The position numbers were made by a program, and so were the translations under genes. The notes beneath the pieces were generated by a model, which was not told the origin of the DNA, searched no databases, and saw nothing but the letters and a program-made list of their open reading frames with translations. Positions 1-13,683 of a DNA stretch of 64,000 bases are shown piece after piece (position 1 is the stretch's first letter; the number at the start of each line of letters is the position of its first letter). Origin of the DNA: Longimicrobiales bacterium (GTDB lineage: Bacteria; Gemmatimonadota; Gemmatimonadetes; Longimicrobiales; Gaopeijiaceae). Where the stretch lies: assembly GCA_965203485.1 (NCBI GenBank), contig OZ241892.1, positions 2,656,001-2,720,000 of the forward strand, in the 5' to 3' direction.

Positions 1-810
1 GCGCTTCTCCACGCCGCTTCTGCAAATCGCCTGTGCGTCCGTAAGCAAAAAGAACGCCGCCAGTCGGCCCGCCGCATCGAGCAGGCGCTCGGCGCCCAAC
101 TCGCTTGCGTCGCGATCCCATGCCGCGTCCAGGTGCTCGGGATTCTCCTCCTGCACGAGTCGGAGGCAGGCCTTCTCGAACACTTCGGTTCGGCTCGTCG
201 GCCAGCTCCCGTTCGCCACAATGCCCGCCAACAGCTCGAGAGACTGGGGGCTGTCCAGCAGTCCGCCGAGACCCCGGTCCACGGCCTGCCGAACAAAGTC
301 GGCTACGTCCATTTTCTGGGCCGCAGGCAACCCAGCCAGAACGTGGCGAACGTCGTCGCCGCCGAGGGGGTCGAGTTGCAGAAGCCGAAGCCGTCCGCCG
401 TCGAGTAGGGACTGGAGCGCGTTCGTGTCCGTGAGTCCCCAGTCGGCCGGCCGGCACGAGAGCCTGAACCGGGGACGCCCCAGCTTCCTCAACCGGGCGA
501 CGATCTTGTCCAGTGGAGAACGGGGGTCGCCGCCGCCCGCTCGCACTTCGTCCAGGCCGTCGATGAAGAGCACGGCGTTTTTGGCGTCCAGCGCGCCGTC
601 CAGGTCGCCCCGGACGAACTCGCGGGCGGTCACGTATCTTGCCCCGCCCGCCTGGGCTTCGCGCTTGAAGGCGGTCGTCTTGCCTGCCCCGGGGTCGCCC
701 AGTAGCACGTAGGCCCATTCGCACCGGAAGGCCGAGATCGGGCGAGAGGGTTGGACGGATGAACCGTCTTGGTCGTCGTACTCGGTCGCGGTTCGGTCTA
801 CGTACGTCAT
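1..810 (-). CDS. NACHT/STAND-type P-loop NTPase (N-terminal part; runs off the window)
   Basis: Not in the ORF track. Reading the minus strand from ATG 810 gives MTYVDRTATEY...YVLLGDPGAGKTTAF (Walker A)...VLFIDGLDEVR (Walker B)...RLSCRPADW. ATGA overlap with the stop of the upstream ATPase at 807-810. Confidence 0.8.
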   Translation of the reverse strand, partial: MTYVDRTATEYDDQDGSSVQPSRPISAFRCEWAYVLLGDPGAGKTTAFKREAQAGGARYVTAREFVRGDLDGALDAKNAVLFIDGLDEVRAGGGDPRSPLDKIVARLRKLGRPRFRLSCRPADWGLTDTNALQSLLDGGRLRLLQLDPLGGDDVRHVLAGLPAAQKMDVADFVRQAVDRGLGGLLDSPQSLELLAGIVANGSWPTSRTEVFEKACLRLVQEENPEHLDAAWDRDASELGAERLLDAAGRLAAFFLLTDAQAICRSGVEKR

Positions 811-2051
811 GGAGCACGGGGACGATGCTCGTCCAGCCAGTAGCTCGCCGGAGAAGAGAGGAACTCGTTCAGGGGCACGCCGCCGGCTCCCACCAGGAGG
901 GTGCGGGCGTTGGGAAAGCGCTTCCGAAAGTCGTCCATGCCGGCCAGCCGCGTACGTCGAGGGCCGCTCTTCACTTCGATACCCAGGACGTTGGGCCCCC
1001 GCGACAGCACGAAGTCCACTTCGCGGGACTGGCGACGCCAGTAGTGCAGCTTCGTGGCCGTCCGCAGCGAGTTGTGCAGATGCGCCCCGATCGCGCTCTC
1101 GACGATTCGGCCCCAGAAGCCCCGGTCGGCCCGGGCCTCGTCGAACGTGTAGCCCGTCGGCGCGGTCATCACCGCCGTGTTGAGGACGTTCAGCTTGGGA
1201 CTCGACGCCTTGCCCAAATGCGGCTTGGCGGAGTAGTTGCCGAGTCCCGTCACGAGTCCCGCGTCCGACAGGAGGTCGAGGTAGCGAGCCAGGGTCGTCG
1301 TGTTGCCGGCGTCTTGGAGCTGTCCGACCATCTTGTTGTACGACAGCACCTGCCCCGAGTAGTGGGGCGCCAGGTCCATCAACCGACGCATCAAGGCAGG
1401 CTTGTCCACGCGGGTCAGAGCGACGATGTCGCGGTCGATGGTGGGAGCGACGATGGTGTTCTGCACGTAGCTGCGCCATGCGCCAAGGTTGTTCTTGAAG
1501 CCCGCTGCGCCCGGATAGCCTCCGAAGAACAGATGCTCGTCCATGCTGTAGTCGAACGCCTCGGCCATCTCCGGAAGGGACCAGTGGCGAACCGGCACCG
1601 GAAAGAAGCGACCCACCATGCTCTCGTGCAGGCCGGTGAGCATCGACCACGGAGCCGATCCCGACACGATCGCCCGCACAGGGCATCCGGTGGCTTGGTC
1701 CTCGTCCCACAGTCCTTTCACGACCCCCGACCAACCCTTGATGGACTGGACTTCGTCGAGGGCGAGCACGAAGCCCCGCTCGATCTTCTCGGCTTCCCGC
1801 CGAGCGTGCTCCCAGAGTCCGACCAACCACCCGAGGTCGTCCCGTGAAGGCGGCGCCAGCGGGTCGCCCGGCCGATCCACGGCGACGTACCGGCTGGGCA
1901 GGCCAACCCGCTCCAGAGCTTGGCGGATGATCGTGGTCTTGCCCGTCTGGCGCGGACCCGTCACGGCCACCACGAGCCGCTTGGAGTCTTCGGCCAAAAG
2001 GCGGACGACGGTCTCGACTTGCAGGCGCTCAAAGCTGATCATACGGAACAA
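807..2051 (-). CDS. AAA_14 ATPase with C-terminal DUF4143 (PD-(D/E)XK-like) domain
   Basis: GPRQTGKTT, LDEVQ, SGSA, GGYP, and C-terminal EVDFV...IEVKSG. Confidence 0.85.
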   Translation of the reverse strand: MFRMISFERLQVETVVRLLAEDSKRLVVAVTGPRQTGKTTIIRQALERVGLPSRYVAVDRPGDPLAPPSRDDLGWLVGLWEHARREAEKIERGFVLALDEVQSIKGWSGVVKGLWDEDQATGCPVRAIVSGSAPWSMLTGLHESMVGRFFPVPVRHWSLPEMAEAFDYSMDEHLFFGGYPGAAGFKNNLGAWRSYVQNTIVAPTIDRDIVALTRVDKPALMRRLMDLAPHYSGQVLSYNKMVGQLQDAGNTTTLARYLDLLSDAGLVTGLGNYSAKPHLGKASSPKLNVLNTAVMTAPTGYTFDEARADRGFWGRIVESAIGAHLHNSLRTATKLHYWRRQSREVDFVLSRGPNVLGIEVKSGPRRTRLAGMDDFRKRFPNARTLLVGAGGVPLNEFLSSPASYWLDEHRPRAP

Positions 2052-2314: not shown

Positions 2315-3931
2315 ATGAGCGTGCCGGCCAAGGTCCCATCCTCCGCCGCCACGACCGGCTACGAGGCCGAGCTGTGGAAGATGGCGGACGCGCTTCGCGG
2401 CTCCATGGACGCCGCCGAGTACAAGCACGTCGTCCTGGGGCTGATCTTCCTCAAGTACGTCTCCGACGCCTTCGAGGAAATGCACGCGAAGCTCGGCGAG
2501 GACGAGCACGCCGACCCGGAGGACCCGGACGAGTACCTGGCCGAGAGCATCTTCTGGGTGCCGCCCGAGGCCCGCTGGGGGCGGCTCAAGGCCGCCGCCA
2601 AGCAACCCGGAATCGGCCGGCTCGTGGACGACTCGATGACCGCCGTCGAGCGCGACAACCCCATGCTGAAGGACGTCCTGCCGAAGGACTACGCCCGCCA
2701 GTCCCTCGACCAGACGCGCCTGGGCCAGCTCATCGACATGGTGAGCAACATCAAGGTCGGCGACGAGGCCGCCCGCTCGAAGGACGTGCTCGGCAGGGTC
2801 TACGAGTATTTCCTGTCGCGCTTCGCGGACGCCGAAGGCAAGCGGGGCGGCGAGTTCTACACCCCCCGTTGCGTCGTCAAGCTGCTGGTCGAGATGATCG
2901 AACCGTTCAAGGGGCGCGTCTACGACCCGTGCTGCGGCTCGTCGGGCATGTTCGTGCAGTCGCTGGAGTTCATCCGGGCGCACCGAAAGCCCAACGGCGG
3001 CGGAGACGCGGCGCCCGGCGGCGACGGCCTGCCGTCGACTGCCCCGGACCCCATCTCCGTCTACGGCCAAGAGTCCAACTACACGACCTGGCGCCTCGCC
3101 AAGATGAACCTCGCCATCCGCGGAATCGAAGGCCAGATCGCCCACGGAGACACCTTCCACAACGACCGCCACCCCGCCCTCAAGGCCGACTACATCCTCG
3201 CCAACCCGCCCTTCAACGTGAGCGACTGGGGCGCGGAGCGGCTGAAGGACGACCAGCGCTGGCGCTTCGGCACGCCGCCCAAGGGCAACGCCAACTTTGC
3301 CTGGGTCCAGCACATGGTGCACCACCTGTCGCCCACCGGAGTCGCCGGCTTCGTGCTGGCCAACGGCTCGATGAGCTCCCGCCAAAAGGCCGAGGCCGCC
3401 GTCCGCCAAGGGCTGGTGGACGCCGAGATGCTGGACTGCATGGTCGCCCTGCCCACGCAACTCTTCTACTCGACCCAGATACCCGCCTGCCTGTGGTTCT
3501 TGGCCCGCGACCGAAGCAACGGCCCGTACCGCGACCGCCGAGGCCAAGTCCTCTTCGTCGACGCCCGCCAGCTGGGGCGCATGGTGGATCGCACCCACCG
3601 CGAGCTCACCGACGAGGACGTGTCCCGAATCGCCGGCACCTATCACGCTTGGCGCAGCCCCGAGGCCGCCGACGCCTACCAGGACGTCCCCGGCTTCTGC
3701 AAGAGCGCCCCGCTGGAAGAGATCCGCCGCTACGACTACGTGCTCACGCCCGGCCGCTACGTCGGCGTCGAGCCCCAGGAAGAAGACGACGAACCCTTCG
3801 AGGACAAGATGCGACGTCTCGCGGCCGAGTGGCGCGAGCAGGTGGCGGAGGCGCGGCGGCTGGACGCGAAGATCGAAGCGAACTTGAGGTCCCTCGGCTT
3901 TCCGCCTCCGGAAGACCGCCCATCGGAATGA
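2315..3931 (+). CDS. hsdM: Type I restriction-modification methyltransferase subunit M
   Basis: [19 protein letters not shown]-terminus, GEFYTP, motif I DPCCGSSG, motif IV ANPPF. Confidence 0.95.
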
Positions 3932-4344
3932 TCGACTACGGCAAGTTCCGCCTCTCGCTGGAGCGGCTCCAAGAGCAGTACGAAAACTACAGCCAGCCCG
4001 ACCTTTCGTTGCCCGAGGTCACGCGCGAGGCCGTCGCCGAGTCGGTCGTCCACCGCTTCGAGACGTGCTACGACTCCCTGTGGAAGGCCCTCAAGCGGTA
4101 CTTGGCGGAAGAGCTGGGCGTCGCCGACCTTCCCAACAGCCCCAAGCCGATCTTCCGACTTGCCTCCGAGAACCACCTGTTTGACAGCCCTCTGGAGCGT
4201 TGGCTAGGATATGCCGAACACCGCGTGGGCACGGCCCACGACTACAGCCTGTCGAAGGCCGAGGACTGCTTGGCGGCGACGGGCGACTTCATCGTGGACG
4301 CCACCGCGCTTTACGAGACGATGACCGGGGAACGATGGAAATGA
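3928..4344 (+). CDS. HEPN-domain protein (HI0074-like nucleotidyltransferase substrate-binding family), putative RNase toxin
   Basis: [14 protein letters not shown]...[20 protein letters not shown]...SPKPIFR; RX4HXY motif [12 protein letters not shown] overlaps with both neighbours. Confidence 0.85.
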
Positions 4345-5876
4345 AGGGCGAGATCGATCTGACGGAGGAGCAGCGGCAACTGGTGGTAGGGTTGATCAAA
4401 CGGCACCTGCCCGACACGGATGTGTGGGCTTATGGGTCGAGGGTGACGTGGACTGCGCGGCCCGGGTCTGACTTGGACTTGGTTGTGTTTTCCGATACTG
4501 ACCACAGTCGTGAGGTGTCCGACTTTCGGGAGGCATTGGACGACAGCAACTTGCCGTTTCGCGTAGATGTGTCGGTTTGGGGCGAATTGCCGGAGTCGTT
4601 TCGACAAGAAATTGACCAGGCACACTTTCCTGTTGTCGAGGACACGTCCCACGTGATGCATCTGACTTTCGGCGAGTGTGCGACATTGGTACGTGACACC
4701 GTTGATCCCGAGGATATGCCTAGCGATATGCCATACGTCGGTCTCGGCCATATCCCCCGCAACGGTCTTGCCATAATCAATCCTGGCGTAGCAAGTGACG
4801 TGACGAGTGCGAAGACTCGTTTCCGACGCGGTGATATATTGTTTGGACGACTACGGCCATATTTCCGTAAGGTGGCACGTGCTCAGTACGATGGCATATG
4901 TTCGACGGACATTTGGGTAGTGCGCGCTCGTTCAGGTATAGAACAAGAATACTTATTCTACCAGATGGCTCACCGCCAATTTGTTGATTATGCTTCCTCT
5001 GCCTCCGAGGGCACAAGAATGCCGAGAGCAAAATGGGATCACGTCGCGCAATATAATATTGCTCTTCCATGCATAAGCATCCAACAGCGTATCGCTCATC
5101 TTCTTCGTACCATGGACGAGAAGATCAATCTGATTCAGAGAAAAATGGGAACTCTTGATTCGATACTCCGCACTGTTTTTTATGGTTGGTTCGTGACCTA
5201 TGATCCGGTTTATGCCAAGGCAGAGGGCCGAGATGCAAAACTACCGGCGACGATTGCCGATGCTTTTGTCGATTCCACAACTACTTCGTCACTAGGATCC
5301 ATACCATCTGGATGGACAGTGAAATCGTTAGGTGACCTTCTCACACTCGCCTACGGCAGAGCACTCCCTTCTCGGAACAGACGGCACAATGGAAGCATAC
5401 CAGTTTATGGTTCAAATGGTCAAATCGGATGGCATGACACGGCACTTGTCGACGGACCCGGCATCGTAGTTGGGCGAAAAGGAACACCAGGTACGGTCAA
5501 TTGGATTTCCACCGATTTCTTTCCCATAGATACAGCATATTATGTTGTACCAAGACATCATTGCATTTCTTTGTTTTTTTTGTTTTTTGCATTACAAGAT
5601 CAACGTCTTTCCTTGCTCGTCGCCGATTCCGCTGTACCCGGATTGAATCGTGATATTGCGTATGCTCAACAACAAGTTTTTCCCACTGCTCGTGTTCTTA
5701 GGCTTTTCGACGAATGTGTGAAGCCATTCTTTGCCACCATTGGACACTTGACAGACGAACGCCAACTCATCATTTCGGTACGCAATCTTCTGCTGGATCA
5801 GTTTATGAGTCGTGGGAATGCGAATCATCAATCAAGCCATAACACCGGATCGCCCGTGAGTCCAGAACCTGTGTGA
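4341..5876 (+). CDS. hsdS: Fusion of a minimal nucleotidyltransferase (MNT) with a type I R-M specificity subunit
   Basis: The first ~100 aa carry GSX10DXD (GSRVTWTARPGSDLD) and LPFRVDV. Two TRDs and a conserved region follow (GDILFGRLRPYFRK, QQRIAHLLRTMDEKI, SSLGSIPSGW, IVVGRKGT). One continuous reading frame. Confidence 0.88.
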   Translation: MKGEIDLTEEQRQLVVGLIKRHLPDTDVWAYGSRVTWTARPGSDLDLVVFSDTDHSREVSDFREALDDSNLPFRVDVSVWGELPESFRQEIDQAHFPVVEDTSHVMHLTFGECATLVRDTVDPEDMPSDMPYVGLGHIPRNGLAIINPGVASDVTSAKTRFRRGDILFGRLRPYFRKVARAQYDGICSTDIWVVRARSGIEQEYLFYQMAHRQFVDYASSASEGTRMPRAKWDHVAQYNIALPCISIQQRIAHLLRTMDEKINLIQRKMGTLDSILRTVFYGWFVTYDPVYAKAEGRDAKLPATIADAFVDSTTTSSLGSIPSGWTVKSLGDLLTLAYGRALPSRNRRHNGSIPVYGSNGQIGWHDTALVDGPGIVVGRKGTPGTVNWISTDFFPIDTAYYVVPRHHCISLFFLFFALQDQRLSLLVADSAVPGLNRDIAYAQQQVFPTARVLRLFDECVKPFFATIGHLTDERQLIISVRNLLLDQFMSRGNANHQSSHNTGSPVSPEPV

Positions 5877-5923
5877 TCAGATGGTCGCAAGAACCGCTTG
5901 TCGTTCCACCATGAAGGCTCCAG

Positions 5924-6075
5924 TTAGAACTTGAAGAGGGGCAGGAGCGGACGGTCCCGGACCCGCACCCTCCAAAACGCCATGTCCACCAGCCGGACCA
6001 TCTCGCGCTCCGCGTCCGCGAACTCCGTGCGTACTGGATCGAGAGTGTCGAAGTCGAGGTCGCCCCCCCAGTCGC
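5924..6075 (-). pseudogene. Fragmentary duplicate of the 5' part of the neighbouring Rpn gene
   Basis: GDWGGDLDFDTLDPVRTEFADAEREMVRLVDMAFWRVRVRDRP closely matches GDWVDALDFRTLEPAPTEFVDAERETVRLVDMAWRVRFRDRP encoded at ~6895-7020. Confidence 0.75.
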
Positions 6076-6148
6076 CGCTCCACGGCCTCTTGCCGACTGG
6101 GGTGTCCAGCAACACCAAGTAGTCTGAGCCAGCCTCGCCGTCCGTTCG

Positions 6149-7129
6149 CTAGTCGCCACCCGCCTTGGCGATCAGCTCCTCGCCCGTCTCGCACTCCGCC
6201 AACAGCCGCCCCAACCGCGCCAGCCGAGAGCGGTCCGTCACGCCGGCAAGCATGTCGGCCAGCCGCTCCGCCGCATCCGCGCCGAACTTCCACTTCGCCG
6301 TCTCCACGTACGCCCGAGCCTCCCCGAGCGTCTGGGCCTCCTGCGCCACTTTCGAGATGTGGTTCGCGTACACCTTGGTTGCCTCCTTCAGCGTGTCCAA
6401 CTGTCCGATTGTCTCCTCCGACCCCTTCCAATCTATCATCTGAACGCGAATCCACGCGACGTACGCCTCCCGCAACGCCGACGTGACCAAGCGCTCCTCC
6501 AGAACCGCCAACGCTTGCGCGACCCGTTCTGGGTCCCGCTCGAAGCGTAGCGCCAAGCCTGCACGCAGGCGGCCCGCCTTGCGCAGATCGAGAGACGCGC
6601 CCTTCGCCGCTTCCGCCTCCTCGTCCAGCAGCACCACTCGCTGGCCGTACACGAACGGCCTCAGTTCTTCGGGCGCGAGCTTCTCTAGCTCGCACGCCTT
6701 GCTCAGCGGCCCCCTCCACCTGCCCTCGAAGCTCTTGACCACCACAAACAACACCGCGCTCGCTTCCACGTCGGCCCCGGCACGCCGGCCTTCAGCCAAG
6801 CTCTGGTAGCACAGCGCCGTCTCGAGCAACGCGCGGGTCGCCATCCTCTTGTCCGCCTTCGACTGGAACTCGAACAGGAGCACGAGCCAGAGCGGGCGGT
6901 CCCGGAACCGCACCCTCCACGCCATGTCCACCAGCCGGACCGTCTCGCGCTCCGCGTCCACGAACTCCGTCGGCGCCGGCTCGAGGGTTCTGAAGTCGAG
7001 CGCGTCCACCCAGTCGCCGCCCACGGACTCGCCGACGATCTCGACGACGACTTCCTCCACAACCTCCGCGAACGAGTAGAACTGCTTGTACACTCGGTCC
7101 TTCTCGCCGTGCTTCGGCTGGTCGGGCAT
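6149..7129 (-). CDS. Rpn family recombination-promoting nuclease / PD-(D/E)XK putative transposase
   Basis: DRVYKQFYS, LDFRTLE..PTEFV, DMAWRV, LLFEFQSKADKRMATR; C-terminal KFG...AERL helical tail. Confidence 0.85.
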   Translation of the reverse strand: MPDQPKHGEKDRVYKQFYSFAEVVEEVVVEIVGESVGGDWVDALDFRTLEPAPTEFVDAERETVRLVDMAWRVRFRDRPLWLVLLFEFQSKADKRMATRALLETALCYQSLAEGRRAGADVEASAVLFVVVKSFEGRWRGPLSKACELEKLAPEELRPFVYGQRVVLLDEEAEAAKGASLDLRKAGRLRAGLALRFERDPERVAQALAVLEERLVTSALREAYVAWIRVQMIDWKGSEETIGQLDTLKEATKVYANHISKVAQEAQTLGEARAYVETAKWKFGADAAERLADMLAGVTDRSRLARLGRLLAECETGEELIAKAGGD

Positions 7130-7409
7130 GAGCAGCCCCTCCGTTCCTGGCCGAGTGCGGGTTCGCTGTTGCGTCTGGAACTGGACGCCGGGAGGCCCGC
7201 CCGGAACGTCCGGGAGGCACGGCAGGCGGGTGCGTCCCTGAGAAGATGGGGCCGCAGAACGGGCGTTTGGATGGCTGGATCGGCCACGCGTGAAATTGGC
7301 TTGCGGGCTGGAAGGCCCCGCCGCCCTGCTTGCCGCGTCCTTGACTCGCGGCCATCTTGCGGAATCCAGGCAGTTCGGCCTCTTCGCGCCACACGTGGTG
7401 GCTCTTCCG

Positions 7410-10400
7410 GTGTCTCGCATCCTCGAATCCGCAGTTGAGCAGGCCGCGCTCGAGTGGCTCAGCCAATCCGGCTGGACGACCGCGCACGGCCCCGACCTCG
7501 GCGCGGACAGCCCCGCCGGCCGGGCGTCCGAGCGGTCAGCCTACTCCGACGTCACCCTCGCCTCCCGCCTCCGCAAGGCCCTCTCGCGCCTCAATCCCGA
7601 TCTCCCCGGCACCACTCTCGACGACGCCCTCCGCAAGCTGACCCGCCCCGCCGGCTCCACCCTCGACGCCCGCAACCGCTCCTTCCACCGAATGCTGGTG
7701 GACGGCGTCCCCGTCGAGTACCGGACGCCCGACGGAAGCATCCGCGGCGCCAACCCCCGAGTCCTCGACTTCGACCAGACCGACGCCAACGACTGGCTGG
7801 CCGTCAACCAGTTCACCGTCGTCGAGGGCAAGCGCACGCGCCGCCTGGACGTCGTGCTGTTCGTCAACGGGCTCCCGCTGGGCGTGGTGGAGCTCAAGGA
7901 CCCGAGCAACCCGGACGCCACCATCCACACCGCATGGCGGCAGCTTCAGACCTACAAGGCGGAGTTGCCCACGCTCTTCGCCATGAACGAGATCATGGGC
8001 GTCTCGGACGGCGTGGATGCCCGGTTCGGCACGCTCACCGGCGGCTGGGAGTGGTTCAAGCCGTGGCGCACCATCGACGGCGACGAGAGGGCGGGAGCGT
8101 CGGCGTCCCAGCTGCAGGTCGCCGTCGAGGGGCTGTGCGCGCCGCGACGGTTGCTCGACATGATCCGCGACTTCATCGTCTTCGAGGACGACGGCGGAGG
8201 CGAGCTGGCCAAGAAGATGGCGGGCTACCACCAGTACCACGCGGTGCGGGTGGCCGTGGGCCAGACCCTGCGGGCGACCCGGATGCAGGACGAGAAGGAA
8301 GCCGCTCCGGTTCGGCCCTTCCGGCCGGTCGTCGTCCCGCCGGACCCGCGAACCCGGTACGTCACCACTGCGCCGCTGGTCCCGCTCAAGGCCGCGGCTG
8401 GCGCGTTCGGCGATCCGCGGCGCTTCCCGGCGGACGACTTCGAGTGGACCAGGATTCGCCCGAAACGCCCGCTGCGGCGCGGGATGTTCGTCGCCCAGGT
8501 CGTCGGCCCATCGATGGAACCGGCGATACCCGACGGCGCCTGGTGCCTCTTCTCCGCGCCGGTCGAAGGCACGCGCCAGGGCAAGACCGTGCTCGTGGAG
8601 CTTCGCGACGAGATCGATCCCGAGACCGGCGAGCGCTACACCGTCAAGCGGTACGAGAGCGAGAAGGCCGCCCAGAACGAAGACGGCGACCGCTGGCGCC
8701 ACGCCCGCGTCACCCTCAAGCCCCGCAATCCGCGCTTCCAGCCCATCGTGCTCGCGCCCCAGGACGAAGGCCAAGTACACGTCGTCGCCGAACTGGTGGA
8801 GGTGCTGGACCGCCACGCTCTCGACACCGGTCCGAAGCCCGCGCTACCGGGCGACCGCCGCGTCGGCGTGGTGTGGCACACGCAGGGCTCCGGCAAGAGC
8901 CTCACGATGGCGTTCTACGCGGGGCGCATCGTTCGCGAGCCGGCCATGGCGAACCCCACGCTGGTGGTCCTCACCGACCGCAACGACCTGGACGAGCAAC
9001 TCTTCGCCACGTTCTCCCGTTGCCGGGACCTGTTGCGCCAGCCGCCCGAGCAAGCCGAGGACCGGGCCGACTTGCGCCGGCGGCTGGACCGCGAAGCGGG
9101 CGGCGTCGTCTTCACCACGATCCAGAAGTTCTTCCCGGATCAGAAGGGCGATCGGCATCCGTTGCTGTCGGCGCGGCGCAATATCGTGGTCGTCGCCGAC
9201 GAGGCCCACCGCAGCCAGTACGACTTCGTCGACGGCTTCGCCGCTCACATGCGCGACGCCCTGCCCGCCGCCTCGTTCATCGGCTTCACCGGCACGCCCA
9301 TCGAGCACACGGACCGCAACACGCGCAGCGTCTTCGGCGACCACATCAGCATCTACGACATCCAGCGCGCGGTGGACGACGGCGCCACGGTGCCGATCCA
9401 CTACGAGGGCCGGCTGGCCAAGCTCGCGCTGGACGAAGACGAGCGGCCCCGGATCGATTCGCAGTTCGAGGAAGCCACGGAGGGCGAGGAGGTCGCCCGC
9501 AAAGAAGGACTGAAGACGCGCTGGGCGCAACTGGAGGCGATAGTCGGGGCCGACAAGCGCCTGGAGTTGGTGGCCGGCGACTTGGTGCGCCACTACGAGC
9601 AGCGGTGCGACGCGCTGGAAGGCAAGGCGATGATCGTGTGCATGAGCCGCCGCATCTGCGTGGCCCTGCACGACAAGATCGTGTCGAAGCGCTCCGGCTG
9701 GCACGGCGAAGAAGACGAGCAGGGCGCGATCAAGGTCGTCATGACCGGCTCGGCCTCCGATCCGCCGGAGTGGCAACGCCACATCCGCAGCAAGGGACAA
9801 AGGGAGGCGCTCGCCAAGCGGTTCCGAGACCCGGACGACCCGTTTCGAATCGTGATCGTGCGCGACATGTGGCTGACCGGCTTCGACGCGCCGGCGCTGC
9901 ACACCATGTACGTGGACAAGCCCATGCGCGGCCACGGCTTGATGCAGGCCATCGCCCGCGTGAACCGTGTCTTCCGCGACAAGCCGGGCGGGCTGGTCGT
10001 GGACTATCTGGGACTGGCGAACGACCTGAAGGAGGCTCTGACCACCTACACGAACAGCGGCGGCAGGGGCAGGCCCACCGTCGACCAGGACCAAGCCGTG
10101 CAGGAGATGCGCAAGCGCTTCGAGATATGCCGCGATCTCTTCCACGGCTTCGACCGGTCGCGCTGGACCGCCGGCGCCCCCGCCGAGCGCTTGGCGCTGT
10201 TGCCCGCCGCGCAAGAGCACGTCCTGGCCCAGGAGAACGGCAAGGACCGGTTGCTCGAAGCCGTGGACGCCCTGTCCAAGGCGTTCGCGCTCGCCGTCCC
10301 CCACGACGAAGCCCTCGGCATCCGAGACGACGTGGGCTTCTTCCAGACCGTGCGCAACTCCCTGGCCAAGCGGGCGCCCGGCGCCGCCCAGCCCGCCGAG

Positions 10401-11063
10401 GAACTCGACCACGCCGTGCGGCAGATCATCGCCGGAGCCGTCGTGCCCAAGGGCGTGATCGACATCTTCGCGGCCGCCGGACTGCCGAAGCCCGACATCT
10501 CCATCCTGTCCGACGAGTTCCTGGCCGAAGTGCGGGACCTGCCGCAACGCAACCTGGCCGTCGACCTGCTGCGCAAGCTTCTGGACGGCGAAGTGCGCGC
10601 CCGCCGCCGCAAGAATGTGGTGCAGAGCCGCTCCTTCGCCGAGATGTTGGAGCGCACGCTGGCCCGCTACAGGAACCGAGCCGTCGAGACCGCCCAGGTG
10701 ATCGAGGAGCTGATCGGCTTGGCGAAGGAGATGCGCGAGGCCGACCGCCGCGGCGAAGACCTTGGCCTGTCCGAGGACGAGCTCGCGTTCTACGACGCGC
10801 TGGAGACCAACGACAGCGCCGTCAAAGTGCTCGGCGACGAGACATTGCGCACAATCGCTCGCGAGCTGGTCGCGACCGTGCGCAACAACACCACGATCGA
10901 CTGGACGATCCGCGACAACATCCGCGCCCGCCTCCGCGTCTACGTCAAAAAGGTCCTCCGCAAGCACGGCTACCCGCCCGACAAGGAGGAGGCGGCAACC
11001 AAGACGGTCTTGCAACAGGCCGAGGTGTTCTCGGCGGACTGGCTGGCCTCGGCGCCACGGTGA
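7410..11063 (+). CDS. hsdR: Type I restriction endonuclease subunit R with an inserted S24 (LexA-like) peptidase domain
   Basis: Nuclease motif [19 protein letters not shown], Walker [34 protein letters not shown]-terminal [13 protein letters not shown]. Probable GTG start at 7410 (ORF is open from 7290). Confidence 0.93.
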
Positions 11064-11357: not shown

Positions 11358-11864
11358 ATGAGCATGAAGCTAAAGAAGCTACTGTCCCAGTTTCGCCTAG
11401 AGGGTGTGCGTCTCAACGTCAAGTTCGCCACCTTCGACGTCGACCTGACAGACCACGACAAGAACGCGGCGTGGGATCTGTACGTAGAGATGTTGACCAG
11501 GATCGCCACCCAGCCGCTCCCCACCATCCATGGCAGTGAGGATCAAGCTTTGGCGAGCGTCTACTCTCTGTTTCCTACTACCCGCGAAATCCTCCGACGT
11601 CGAGGTCCCAGCACTATTGAATTCTCCAAAATCGCGATCCCTGTACTCAATCAAGTTGTACGTCCATTTACGGCCAAATGGCATCGCGAATCACTGGTGG
11701 GCGCATTTGACGACCCCGCCCGCTGTATCGAATTTCGTCAAGAACTCGCGTCACTGCAGGTTCATCTAAGGAACTACAATCGCCTGTTGGCGAGCATTGC
11801 CGATGTAGAAGACCTTACTGACCCAGAACCTCATGACCAAACAATGGGAGAAAACCATGGCTGA
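11358..11864 (+). CDS. Hypothetical helical protein, first gene of the TIR operon
   Basis: Globular-looking ORF ([18 protein letters not shown]...VRPFTAKWH) that overlaps the TIR start. Confidence 0.7.
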
Positions 11865-12336
11865 CAAACTGCACAATGTCTTCATTAGTCACAAGCATGA
11901 AGACGACGCTGGCCTACAGTCGCTCAAGGCCCTGCTTGAACGGCACGGCATGAAATACAGGGATTATTCCGTGACATCTGACAAGCCTAATCGCGCCGTT
12001 AGTGAAGATTACATAAAATCCAGCATCCTTGCGCCTAGAATCCAACGCGCTAGCTGTTTAGTCGTATACGTGTCGGCAGCGACCAAGAACAGTGACTGGG
12101 TAGATTGGGAAATCGAATATGCCCACGGAAAGGGGAAGCGAATAGTCGGCGTTTGGCAACGCGGAGAACTGGGTTGTGATGTACCTCGTGCTTTGACTCT
12201 ATACGCTGACGCAGTGGTGGGATGGAATGGCGAAAGCATAGTTGATGCCATTACTGGCAAGTCCAACACGTGGTACAACCAGAATGGGACCTCATGGGAG
12301 TACCGGTCAGACATCCAACGACACACTTGCGGTTAG
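11857..12336 (+). CDS. TIR domain protein (ThsB/DUF1863-like)
   Basis: HNVFISHKHED, ILAPRIQRASCLVVYV, SDWVDWEIEYA (catalytic Glu), GKRIVGV; GGGAG RBS. Confidence 0.88.
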   Translation: MADKLHNVFISHKHEDDAGLQSLKALLERHGMKYRDYSVTSDKPNRAVSEDYIKSSILAPRIQRASCLVVYVSAATKNSDWVDWEIEYAHGKGKRIVGVWQRGELGCDVPRALTLYADAVVGWNGESIVDAITGKSNTWYNQNGTSWEYRSDIQRHTCG

Positions 12337-12834
12337 GAGGACAGTTCATGTTTCTCTATTCGTACATCGTCGCCAGGGACTATGGCTTCGCCCCTAATCC
12401 CTTCTTTGGCTGCTGTACCCTTGCTACGTGCAAGCCCGTAATTCGCCGATGTGCTAGCGTCGGCGATTGGGTCGTTGGCACTGGGCCCAAGAAGAAGCAA
12501 AGGAACGGTTACCTGGTTTTCGCTATGCGGATTGATGACGCAATGTCGTACAACAAGTATTGGTCTGATCCCCGCTTTGCGGCCAAAAAGCCGAACATGC
12601 GATCTAGCGTTCGGAATGCATATGGCGACAATATCTATCGCACAGACGATGCAGGAGGCTGGATACAGCAAGATTCACACCATAGTATGCCACATGGCAA
12701 ATCTTGTGGAGTTGCCCCGGTATGGTGGACGGGCAAGGATCTTGGGTTCAGATGGTGCAATGTGAAACATGACTTTAGGAAGGACGGAGGCGCAAGGGCG
12801 CCGAACGGTCTCGTGTCGAGGGGGTCGGTGCACT

Positions 12835-13683
12835 TTACGCGACCGCACGCTTGCGCTCGAAGCCGGCGGGGGATTCGTAGCCGAGCGCCGAGTGTCGGCG
12901 CCGCGAGTTGTAGAAGCCTTCGATGAAGGCGAAGACGGCGCGCCGGGCTTCGGCCGGACTTGTGAACTGGCAACGGTCCAGCAACTCGCATTCCAACGTG
13001 GCGAAGAAGCTCTCGCACATCGCGTTGTCGTAGGCGTCGCCCACCGAGCCCGTCGAGCGACGCACGCCGGCCTTCCTGCACCGCTCGCCGAACGCCCAGG
13101 ACGTGTACTGCGACCCCTGGTCCGAGTGATGGATCACGGTCTCTGGACTGCGGTTCTCGACGGCCATGGCGAGCGCGCGCTCGACGAGTTCGCCGCGCAG
13201 GTGCGTCTCCATGGCCCAGCCGACGACGCGGCGGCTCCAGGCGTCGACGACGACCGCCAGGTAGAGCCATCCGGCCCCGGCCGGCACGTACGTGATGTCG
13301 GCGACCCAGAGCTGGTCGGGGCCTTCGGCGCTGAAGTCGCGCTCGACCAAGTCCGGAGCCGGGCGCGCGTGGGCGTCGCGCACCGTCAGCGCCACCTTGC
13401 GGCGCCTGCGGCTCGCGCCTTCGATGCCCTCCTCGCGCATGAGGCGGGCGACGCGCTTCGGACCGACGCGCTCGCCCCAGGCCGCGAGATCGGCGTGGAT
13501 GCGCGGTCGCCCGTACGTCCGCCGGCTCGCTTCCCAGCTGCGGCGCACCAAGACGCGCAACGCGTCGTCGCGCAACGCGCTCGCCGATCGGGGACGCTTC
13601 AGCCATGCATAGAAGCCGCTCGGGGAGAGACCGAGGACGCGGCACATCGCGCGCACGGGAAACACGGCCCGGTGCGCTTTCAC
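12835..13683 (-). CDS. IS3 transposase OrfB (DDE/rve)
   Basis: YGRPRI, LWVADITYV, HHSDQGSQYTS, DNAMCESFFATLECE, YNSRRRHSALGY. Confidence 0.93.
   Translation of the reverse strand: MKAHRAVFPVRAMCRVLGLSPSGFYAWLKRPRSASALRDDALRVLVRRSWEASRRTYGRPRIHADLAAWGERVGPKRVARLMREEGIEGASRRRRKVALTVRDAHARPAPDLVERDFSAEGPDQLWVADITYVPAGAGWLYLAVVVDAWSRRVVGWAMETHLRGELVERALAMAVENRSPETVIHHSDQGSQYTSWAFGERCRKAGVRRSTGSVGDAYDNAMCESFFATLECELLDRCQFTSPAEARRAVFAFIEGFYNSRRRHSALGYESPAGFERKRAVA

Follow-up and report, generated by a model that had tools for sequence, protein, structure and literature searches.

A predicted toxin-antitoxin pair whose antitoxin is built into the specificity subunit, HsdS, of a type I restriction-modification (R-M) system is encoded in a 64,000-nucleotide stretch of DNA from a Longimicrobiales bacterium (contig OZ241892.1, positions 2,656,001 to 2,720,000), which we refer to as the window. 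A gene for a predicted HEPN RNase lies between hsdM and hsdS, and an MNT domain, the predicted antitoxin, reads directly into HsdS. The fusion is widespread in bacteria of several phyla and is not a one-off. By motif definition the pair is a class I HepT/MntA toxin-antitoxin, its activity being predicted from conserved residues. The reading that we prefer, and to which we give about an even chance of being right, is that the supply of antitoxin is tied to HsdS and that the R-M locus is thereby locked in.

Anatomy of the locus

The hsdM gene, the HEPN gene and the MNT::HsdS frame (4341-5876) are joined by two ATGA overlaps, one at 3928-3931, where hsdM stops and the HEPN gene starts, and one at 4341-4344 (Table 1). 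The HEPN protein scores 62.7 bits against PF08780 (cut-off, 31.8), which is, with PF01934, one of the two families that define class I HepT; its match to TIGR01987 is below cut-off, as is that of the MNT domain to NF047752 MntA (27 bits; cut-off, 60). R99, H104 and Y106 are invariant among eight aligned HEPN proteins, and the relatives of the window HEPN in the PDB are TTHA0636 and HI0074. By analogy with the pair described in PMC7641770, Y106 is the predicted AMP acceptor. On the antitoxin side, G32, S33, D44, D46 and D76 are invariant across 48 aligned MNT::HsdS fusions.

The fusion protein has 511 aa, with no stop between MNT and HsdS, and its AlphaFold model (mean predicted local distance difference test score, 86) has a small MNT domain, a low-confidence linker at residues 100-102 and a body in which two target recognition domains (TRDs) alternate with helices (TRD-helix-TRD-helix). 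Foldseek searches with this model returned HsdS chains (7vs4_C, E = 7e-22) and HI0073 (1no5_B, E = 2e-5), and the MNT fold matches 1no5, 8xeo, 8xeh and 6m6v. The G+C content of the HsdS body is low, at about 0.49-0.52 versus 0.68 in hsdM. The type I gene set, consisting of hsdM, a two-TRD hsdS and hsdR frames, is intact, with hsdR 1.5 kb downstream of hsdS, beyond an opposite-strand YhgA-like gene. A preliminary description of this region had reported the two ATGA overlaps, an RX4HXY motif (RVGTAHDY) kept in the HEPN protein, and an MNT with GSX10DXD that runs without a stop into a two-TRD HsdS; the overlaps and the HEPN motif were found as described, and domain matches and the structural model agree on the composition of the fusion.

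Table 1. Features of the R-M locus in the window
Feature	Position	Strand	Details
hsdM, type I methyltransferase	2315..3931	+	538 aa, NPPF motif; PF02384 (E = 5e-105), PF12161, PADLOC MTase_I (E = 1e-213)
HEPN gene, HI0074/NTase_sub_bind family, predicted RNase toxin	3928..4344	+	138 aa; PF08780 (E = 4e-17)
RX4HXY (RVGTAHDY)	4222..4245	+	Motif; R99 to Y106 of HEPN (residues 99-106)
MNT domain, N-terminus of the fusion, predicted adenylyltransferase antitoxin	4341..4640	+	Residues 1-100; PF01909, PF18765 (residues 19-97), HI0073 (E = 4e-14)
GSX10DXD of MNT	4434-4478	+	Motif; residues 32-46; third invariant Asp is D76
Linker and possible internal start	4638..4658	+	GAGGA at 4638-4642, GTG at 4653, ATG at 4656
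HsdS body: TRD1, conserved helix, TRD2, conserved helix	4656..5876	+	PF01420, PADLOC type I specificity models, AlphaFold, Foldseek
hsdR	7410..11063	+	Start uncertain, open frame from 7290; PF04313, PF18766, PF11867, PF00717; TIGR00348 above cut-off

The fusion junction

The preliminary description had left the junction to be confirmed with reads, and read-derived contigs cross it unchanged. One contig of run X1 covers 3700-6100 and one of run X3 covers 4319-6100, both with zero differences from the window; the two runs belong to one study, which is possibly the window's own source. Querying with the MNT region yielded 632 candidates, of which 550 are 281-895 aa long; the best 120 of these were checked for domains, and 113 carry PF01420. 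When no length limit was set, the best 150 matches comprised 117 proteins with an HsdS domain, 12 short free MNTs and 21 longer proteins lacking an HsdS match, most of them truncated. An assembly artefact is ruled out by the contigs that cross the junction together with the HsdS domains in most homologues.

Occurrence of the fused order

To avoid the bias of a fusion query, loci were picked on hsdM only, across 201 genomes from the host's class, and 34 of 35 other matches were read, one at a contig end being excluded. MNT::hsdS lies downstream in 23 of these loci, 22 of which have the HEPN gene; nine have a plain hsdS, one has a fusion upstream of hsdR-hsdM and one is a fragment (two pairs of loci are near-duplicates within one genome). 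No locus among the 34 had a HEPN gene followed by a free MNT and a separate hsdS. The survey for the order hsdM-hepn-mnt:hsdS, which the preliminary description had suggested, was strongly positive.

Loci picked by PF08780 extend this picture. In 301 genomes of the host's phylum, MNT::HsdS follows 24 of 62 PF08780 matches. In the class of a Dehalococcoidia metagenome-assembled genome (MAG), which gave 32 matches, eight of the 30 loci examined are fused; for the class of a Rhodothermales MAG, with 82 matches, the 30 best include 10 fused loci and one in-slot case that is split; a sample of the Desulfobacterota, the phylum of Geomonas, contained none (0/14). When the pair occupies the slot between hsdM and HsdS, fusion is near universal: 23/23 downstream cases in the host's class, and 8/8 and 10/11 in the two other classes. 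The fused order is also carried by plasmid pZMOB01 of Zymomonas mobilis ATCC 10988, in an operon made up of ZMOB_RS09235, RS09975, RS10260 and RS09100.

A further set consisted of the best 80 metagenome loci, which are biased because they were picked with the fusion as query. They hold 81 MNTs, of which 60 are fused, 19 free and two open-ended; a HEPN gene is directly upstream in 55 of the 60 fused loci, so that toxin and fused antitoxin go together, and hsdM is on the contig in 46. The window sequence itself has partial matches in marine and sponge metagenomes, and the RecA of the host is 95% and 92% identical to that of two Longimicrobiales MAGs. A DNA search of plasmids with the window's pair gave no match, phage records gave a single weak match to the Zymomonas fusion, confined to the HsdS part, and a cluster look-up of 10 fusion proteins returned no names.

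Some variants were seen along the way. A second, free HEPN/MNT pair of another subfamily lies about 23 kb upstream of the fused one in the same genome (L089; G000:C1:2636606-2637400). Three PF08780 matches fall within 4 kb around one hsdM locus at G1000:C1:1983353-1987179, the in-slot one being L275. Several MNT::HsdS proteins (P0066, P0074, P0076, P0083, P0084 and others) also have DUF559/MTES_1575-like domains, and 15 of 120 are shorter than 350 aa, with MNT and about one TRD, and are half-size or truncated.

Conservation of both partners

The GSX10DXD motif is present in all 52 distinct fused MNTs, and RX4HXY in 46 of the 48 HEPNs that adjoin distinct fused MNTs. Median ratios of nonsynonymous to synonymous substitution (dN/dS) are 0.11 for HEPN (25 pairs of fused loci; maximum, 0.61), 0.16 for MNT (24 pairs) and 0.12 for HsdM (27 pairs), from comparisons that overlap and from related genomes and sequence pairs that are not independent. 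Judged by these ratios, the HEPN domain and the MNT domain are both under purifying selection.

Repeated origin and replacement

The slot is filled by at least seven HEPN/MNT subfamilies. HEPNs are 20-38% identical among them, and MNTs mostly 20-40%, with two subfamilies sharing a closely related MNT; five of the subfamilies are interleaved on the HsdM tree, among HsdM proteins that are 85-95% identical. The MNT changes between fused and free 12 times on a tree of 72 rows and 14 times on one of 59 rows, nine of the 14 changes being forced by strong branches. On the 59-row tree the approximately unbiased (AU) test rejects a single clade of fused pairs (p-AU 0.0007). These analyses carried long-branch warnings. 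A single origin of the fusion is ruled out by the tree changes and the AU test.

Thirteen proteins carry two MNTs of different types (P0003, P0006, P0008, P0018, P0027, P0030, P0129, P0134, P0137, P0138, P0169, P0221 and P0247), and L275 is a further example. The motif of the first MNT is intact in all 13, and that of the second is broken in seven. These stacked double MNTs, of which the inner one has often decayed, are a record of successive toxin-antitoxin replacements. In L275 the order is hsdM, one HEPN, the matching intact MNT, a decayed MNT of another type and HsdS, and in L155 the HEPN is lost and the second catalytic Asp of the MNT is replaced by Asn. Since MNTs that have been orphaned often decay (seven of 13, L275 and L155), the MNT appears to be kept for its HEPN. 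L036, in which two pairs stand in tandem and the fusion is in the second only, is possibly a precursor of stacking. Free-MNT pairs lie beside hsdM remnants in L172, L179, L194, L201 and L208. At L055:6400-7000 and L081:1-400, an apparent pair of DUF4258 and zinc-finger genes, named partly by resemblance to L059, replaces the HEPN gene before an orphan MNT::HsdS.

Between the window and a related locus, L001, identity is 84-96% at first, drops to 69-80% within the MNT gene and is about 50% beyond it, and contigs of two other studies diverge from the window sequence at 4373-4378. The MNT therefore seems to move along with its hsdS allele. Plain loci have the hsdS start inside the final part of hsdM or adjacent to it, which is where the HEPN gene starts in fused loci, so the fusion may at first be a way to keep hsdS translated. 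A likely origin is that the HEPN gene takes the hsdM-coupled start used by hsdS in plain loci; a small deletion would then fuse MNT to hsdS and keep hsdS translation. MNT::TRD1 alleles appear to be swapped by recombination within or just before the MNT gene, and a new pair would replace an old one by stacking its own MNT onto the old MNT::HsdS.

Neighbouring genes and an insertion in HsdR

The HsdR protein has a LexA-like S24 peptidase domain inserted at residues about 300-475, where it separates the nuclease from the motor part; it has an Ala-Gly site (AAAG, 328), a Ser motif (366) and a Lys motif (411). This region is matched by 1755 long proteins. HsdR and type ISP enzymes make up the best 120, all of which have GxSM and AAAG, and 114 of which have the Lys motif. 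RecA-triggered self-cleavage of such a domain would suit a built-in restriction-alleviation switch. A literature search for the S24 insertion in HsdR found nothing. Elsewhere, an AAA_14/DUF4143 gene lies upstream of hsdM (807-2051, minus strand), and the YhgA-like (Transposase_31) gene between hsdS and hsdR spans 6149-7420 (minus strand), with a partial repeat at about 5977-6100. Downstream of hsdR are a ThsB-like TIR gene and then an Nmad2 gene interrupted by an IS3-like element (11833-12926, plus strand), and an open reading frame lies just upstream of the TIR gene, at about 11397-11864.

Discussion

PF08780/PF01909 pairs with these motifs are class I, and the Tyr of RX4HXY is adenylylated by the tested MntA proteins (PMC7641770). 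In the window, Tyr106 of the HEPN protein, a predicted RNase, would be the residue that the fused MNT adenylylates, and the cell would stay safe only while folded MNT::HsdS is made. The translation and stability of HsdS set the level of the antitoxin, which is part of that protein. HsdS is poorly soluble without HsdM, and type I systems are not known to show post-segregational killing. We infer that the HEPN protein is toxic, that it is AMPylated, and that growth would be arrested when the locus is lost or when the synthesis or stability of HsdS fails. The preliminary description had read the locus as a toxin-antitoxin that served either as a PrrC-analogous guard of the R-M complex or as an addiction module. 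Its anatomy, motifs and toxin-antitoxin reading stand, and the addiction branch is better supported than the guard.

Several findings weigh against a lock of this kind. The antitoxin is a separate gene in some relatives: all four Acetobacter plasmid loci that were read have the same order with MNT and hsdS apart, and split Acetobacter loci occur in several species. Partners can also be lost singly. Five of the 60 fused metagenome loci have no HEPN and yet keep the MNT motif (one is at a contig edge, two are recent deletions and in two the HEPN was replaced by another pair), the second, orphaned MNT is still intact in six of the 13 double-MNT proteins, the HEPN has lost its His and Tyr in three class loci and is truncated in two more, and hsdM is broken, possibly by assembly error, in L012, L082 and L157, where the HEPN and MNT motifs are intact. 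Truncated or frameshifted fusions keep an intact MNT in L057, L073, L157 and L278; the toxin therefore does not protect the TRDs themselves, and the coupling is leaky. The HEPN dN/dS for the window versus L001 is 0.61, from few changes.

Translation of HsdS from a start of its own would weaken the coupling as well. The window copy has in-frame GTG and ATG codons at 4653 and 4656 behind the GAGGA at 4638-4642, so that some HsdS could be made there without MNT, and a start codon behind a Shine-Dalgarno-like (SD) site 3' of MNT is found in 10 of 75 junctions, the window included, versus four in control windows. The Met of this internal start is missing in close homologues with the same TRD1 (e.g., P0004, P0010, P0014 and P0039). 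In-frame ATG codons occur in 25 of the 75 junctions and 29 controls, and ATG with an SD site in four and two. GTG or TTG with an SD site is found in 31 junctions versus four controls, mostly within the final MNT codons, and the same signal is seen in four of 20 free MNT genes versus 18 of 53 fused ones. A conserved internal HsdS start is unsupported as a rule, the ATG and ATG-plus-SD counts being near control; the preliminary description had named an own start of HsdS as something that would undo its reading, and a possible one is kept in the window copy. A sigma-70-like site (10 of 12) directed at MNT::hsdS lies inside the HEPN gene at 4181-4210 (plus strand), one of three such sites found versus 1.0 expected.

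We consider it rather unlikely that the pair is a guard of the R-M complex, resembling PrrC or Ronin and assembled from other parts. Here Ocr-, ArdA- or Stp-like anti-restriction proteins would bind, disassemble or destabilise the M2S or R2M2S complex that carries the tethered antitoxin, neutralisation would stop, and the RNase would be released as an abortive-infection backup. The near-universal fusion of in-slot pairs and the re-fusion of incoming MNTs could reflect selection for a tether, and neighbouring slots hold many defence genes (Kiwa, OLD/UvrD, reverse transcriptase [RT], Piwi, GmrSD and AAA_13), with Kiwa, OLD, RT, Piwi and GmrSD among the frames of the hsdS-hsdR gap, 46 of 76 of which were scanned. 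There are precedents in PrrC (PMC12707154, PMC3632139), in Ronin (10.1101/2023.04.06.535777) and in the proposal of R-M-linked HEPN backups (PMC3710099). Nevertheless, a domain scan placed a sensor or NTPase domain in neither the HEPN protein nor the fusion. Both the low-confidence linker that carries the MNT and the interchangeability of antitoxins that are for the most part 20-40% identical speak against an evolved allosteric interface. The MNTs of this family neutralise their toxins by a covalent, catalytic modification (PMC7641770) that is slow to undo; a blocked MNT would therefore free newly made toxin alone unless the AMP were removed. The same subfamilies also occur as free pairs (38 of the 62 PF08780 matches sampled in the host's phylum have no MNT::HsdS behind them, and none of 14 is fused in the Desulfobacterota sample), and the Acetobacter versions are split. 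A modular form of the guard, in which HsdS is a docking post for interchangeable antitoxins into which at least seven toxin families have plugged independently, is a possibility that we likewise regard as doubtful.

A working selfish pair that sits in an insertion hotspot, with the fusion tolerated to keep hsdS translated and the linkage physical only, is in our view distinctly unlikely. The hsdM-hsdS gap does accommodate other genes, as Phd/PIN, HicB, DUF4258, MqsA-like, Fic, RhuM and YhcG genes were found there (36 open frames from hsdM-side gaps were scanned); the HEPN start falls where hsdS starts in plain loci, and versions with a split or free MNT are common. HsdS tolerates additions, as a further type I S protein of the set shows with its extra DUF559-like domains. 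Mere tolerance is harder to square with in-slot fusion that is near universal in three classes and was reached from at least seven subfamilies, and a fusion, selected for this effect or not, makes the amount of antitoxin depend on HsdS. It is very improbable that the fused MNT regulates restriction through a second substrate (HsdM, HsdR or DNA), with the HEPN protein a mere substrate-binding subunit as was first thought of HI0073/HI0074, since orphaned MNTs often decay (7/13; L155 and L275), nine of the 34 loci with an hsdM of this family have a plain hsdS and 46 of 48 HEPNs retain the RNase motif, even though PDB entries label HI0073/HI0074 a two-protein nucleotidyltransferase and an intact MNT stands beside a HEPN without His and Tyr in three loci.

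Relation to known systems

With class I HepT/MntA, or type VII, pairs (Shewanella SO_3166/SO_3165, PMC7641770; Legionella HEPN-MNT, PMC11586414; HI0074/HI0073, PDB 1jog/1no5), the window shares a PF08780 HEPN with RX4HXY that adjoins a PF01909 MNT with GSX10DXD. It departs from them in that the antitoxin is the N-terminal domain of a specificity subunit and the toxin gene comes first, overlapping the hsdM stop. A small free antitoxin that is usually encoded first, a typical trait outside the motif definition, is thus not what the window has; in these subfamilies the free pairs, too, usually have the toxin gene first.

The locus is neither PrrC, as there is no ATPase, nor Ronin. In common with PrrC/EcoprrI (type IC), it has a gene for a HEPN-family nuclease within a type I operon (PMC12707154, PMC3632139, PMC3710099), but the window HEPN is a 138-aa single domain without an ABC-ATPase and without a PADLOC match, and it has a separate enzymatic antitoxin domain. 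In Ronin (RonA with HsdMS) a gene for a small toxin is likewise linked with hsdM and hsdS, and neutralisation would in both cases depend on an Hsd subunit; RonA, however, is a predicted membrane toxin of 61 aa that HsdMS itself keeps in check, and its locus has no hsdR (10.1101/2023.04.06.535777), whereas the window has a soluble HEPN family, hsdR and a dedicated enzyme-domain antidote. DarTG2 in the type I R-M island of enteropathogenic Escherichia coli is a toxin-antitoxin pair inside a type I operon, but its genes stand apart, in the interval from hsdS to hsdR, and neither is fused to an Hsd subunit (PMC12255303). FhepTA has its MNT inside a larger polypeptide too, and fusion alters the stability of that MNT; the fusion partner is the MNT's own toxin in FhepTA and the DNA-specificity subunit of another system in the window (PMC13000451).

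HEPN-R-M links were earlier proposed as backups (PMC3710099). Full-text literature searches found no description of an MNT-HsdS fusion, although Figure 5 of that paper, which mentions an RM_TRD domain, could show one. The PADLOC specificity model PDLC03138 spans the MNT region, so R-M collections already include proteins of this kind without remarking on them, and the fusion is hidden in annotation because the RefSeq name of the Zymomonas protein is simply 'restriction endonuclease subunit S'. The hsdSp deletion of Z. mobilis ZM4 (PMC8432527) was considered as a natural test and set aside: the gene order there is another one, and ZM4 plasmids are not among the MNT matches. What appears to be new here is the fusion of a predicted MNT antitoxin to HsdS, which has evolved repeatedly; toxin-antitoxin pairs inside type I operons were already known (PMC12255303).

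Implications

Type VII HEPN/MNT pairs are very common, and what triggers them is stated as an open question in PMC7641770. A fused antitoxin offers a concrete candidate trigger, namely loss, depletion or inhibition of HsdS. Z. mobilis ATCC 10988 is a cultured and harmless host with the fusion, and the Acetobacter plasmids are natural split controls. In practice, an hsdS deletion made for better transformation could strip the antitoxin and leave the toxin. If the guard were true, any protein from a phage or plasmid that blocks the methyltransferase complex or takes it apart would also silence the antitoxin and free the HEPN RNase. Coupling of the antitoxin to HsdS, if real, would account for the way in which a type I system acquires addiction, or else a second line against anti-restriction proteins.

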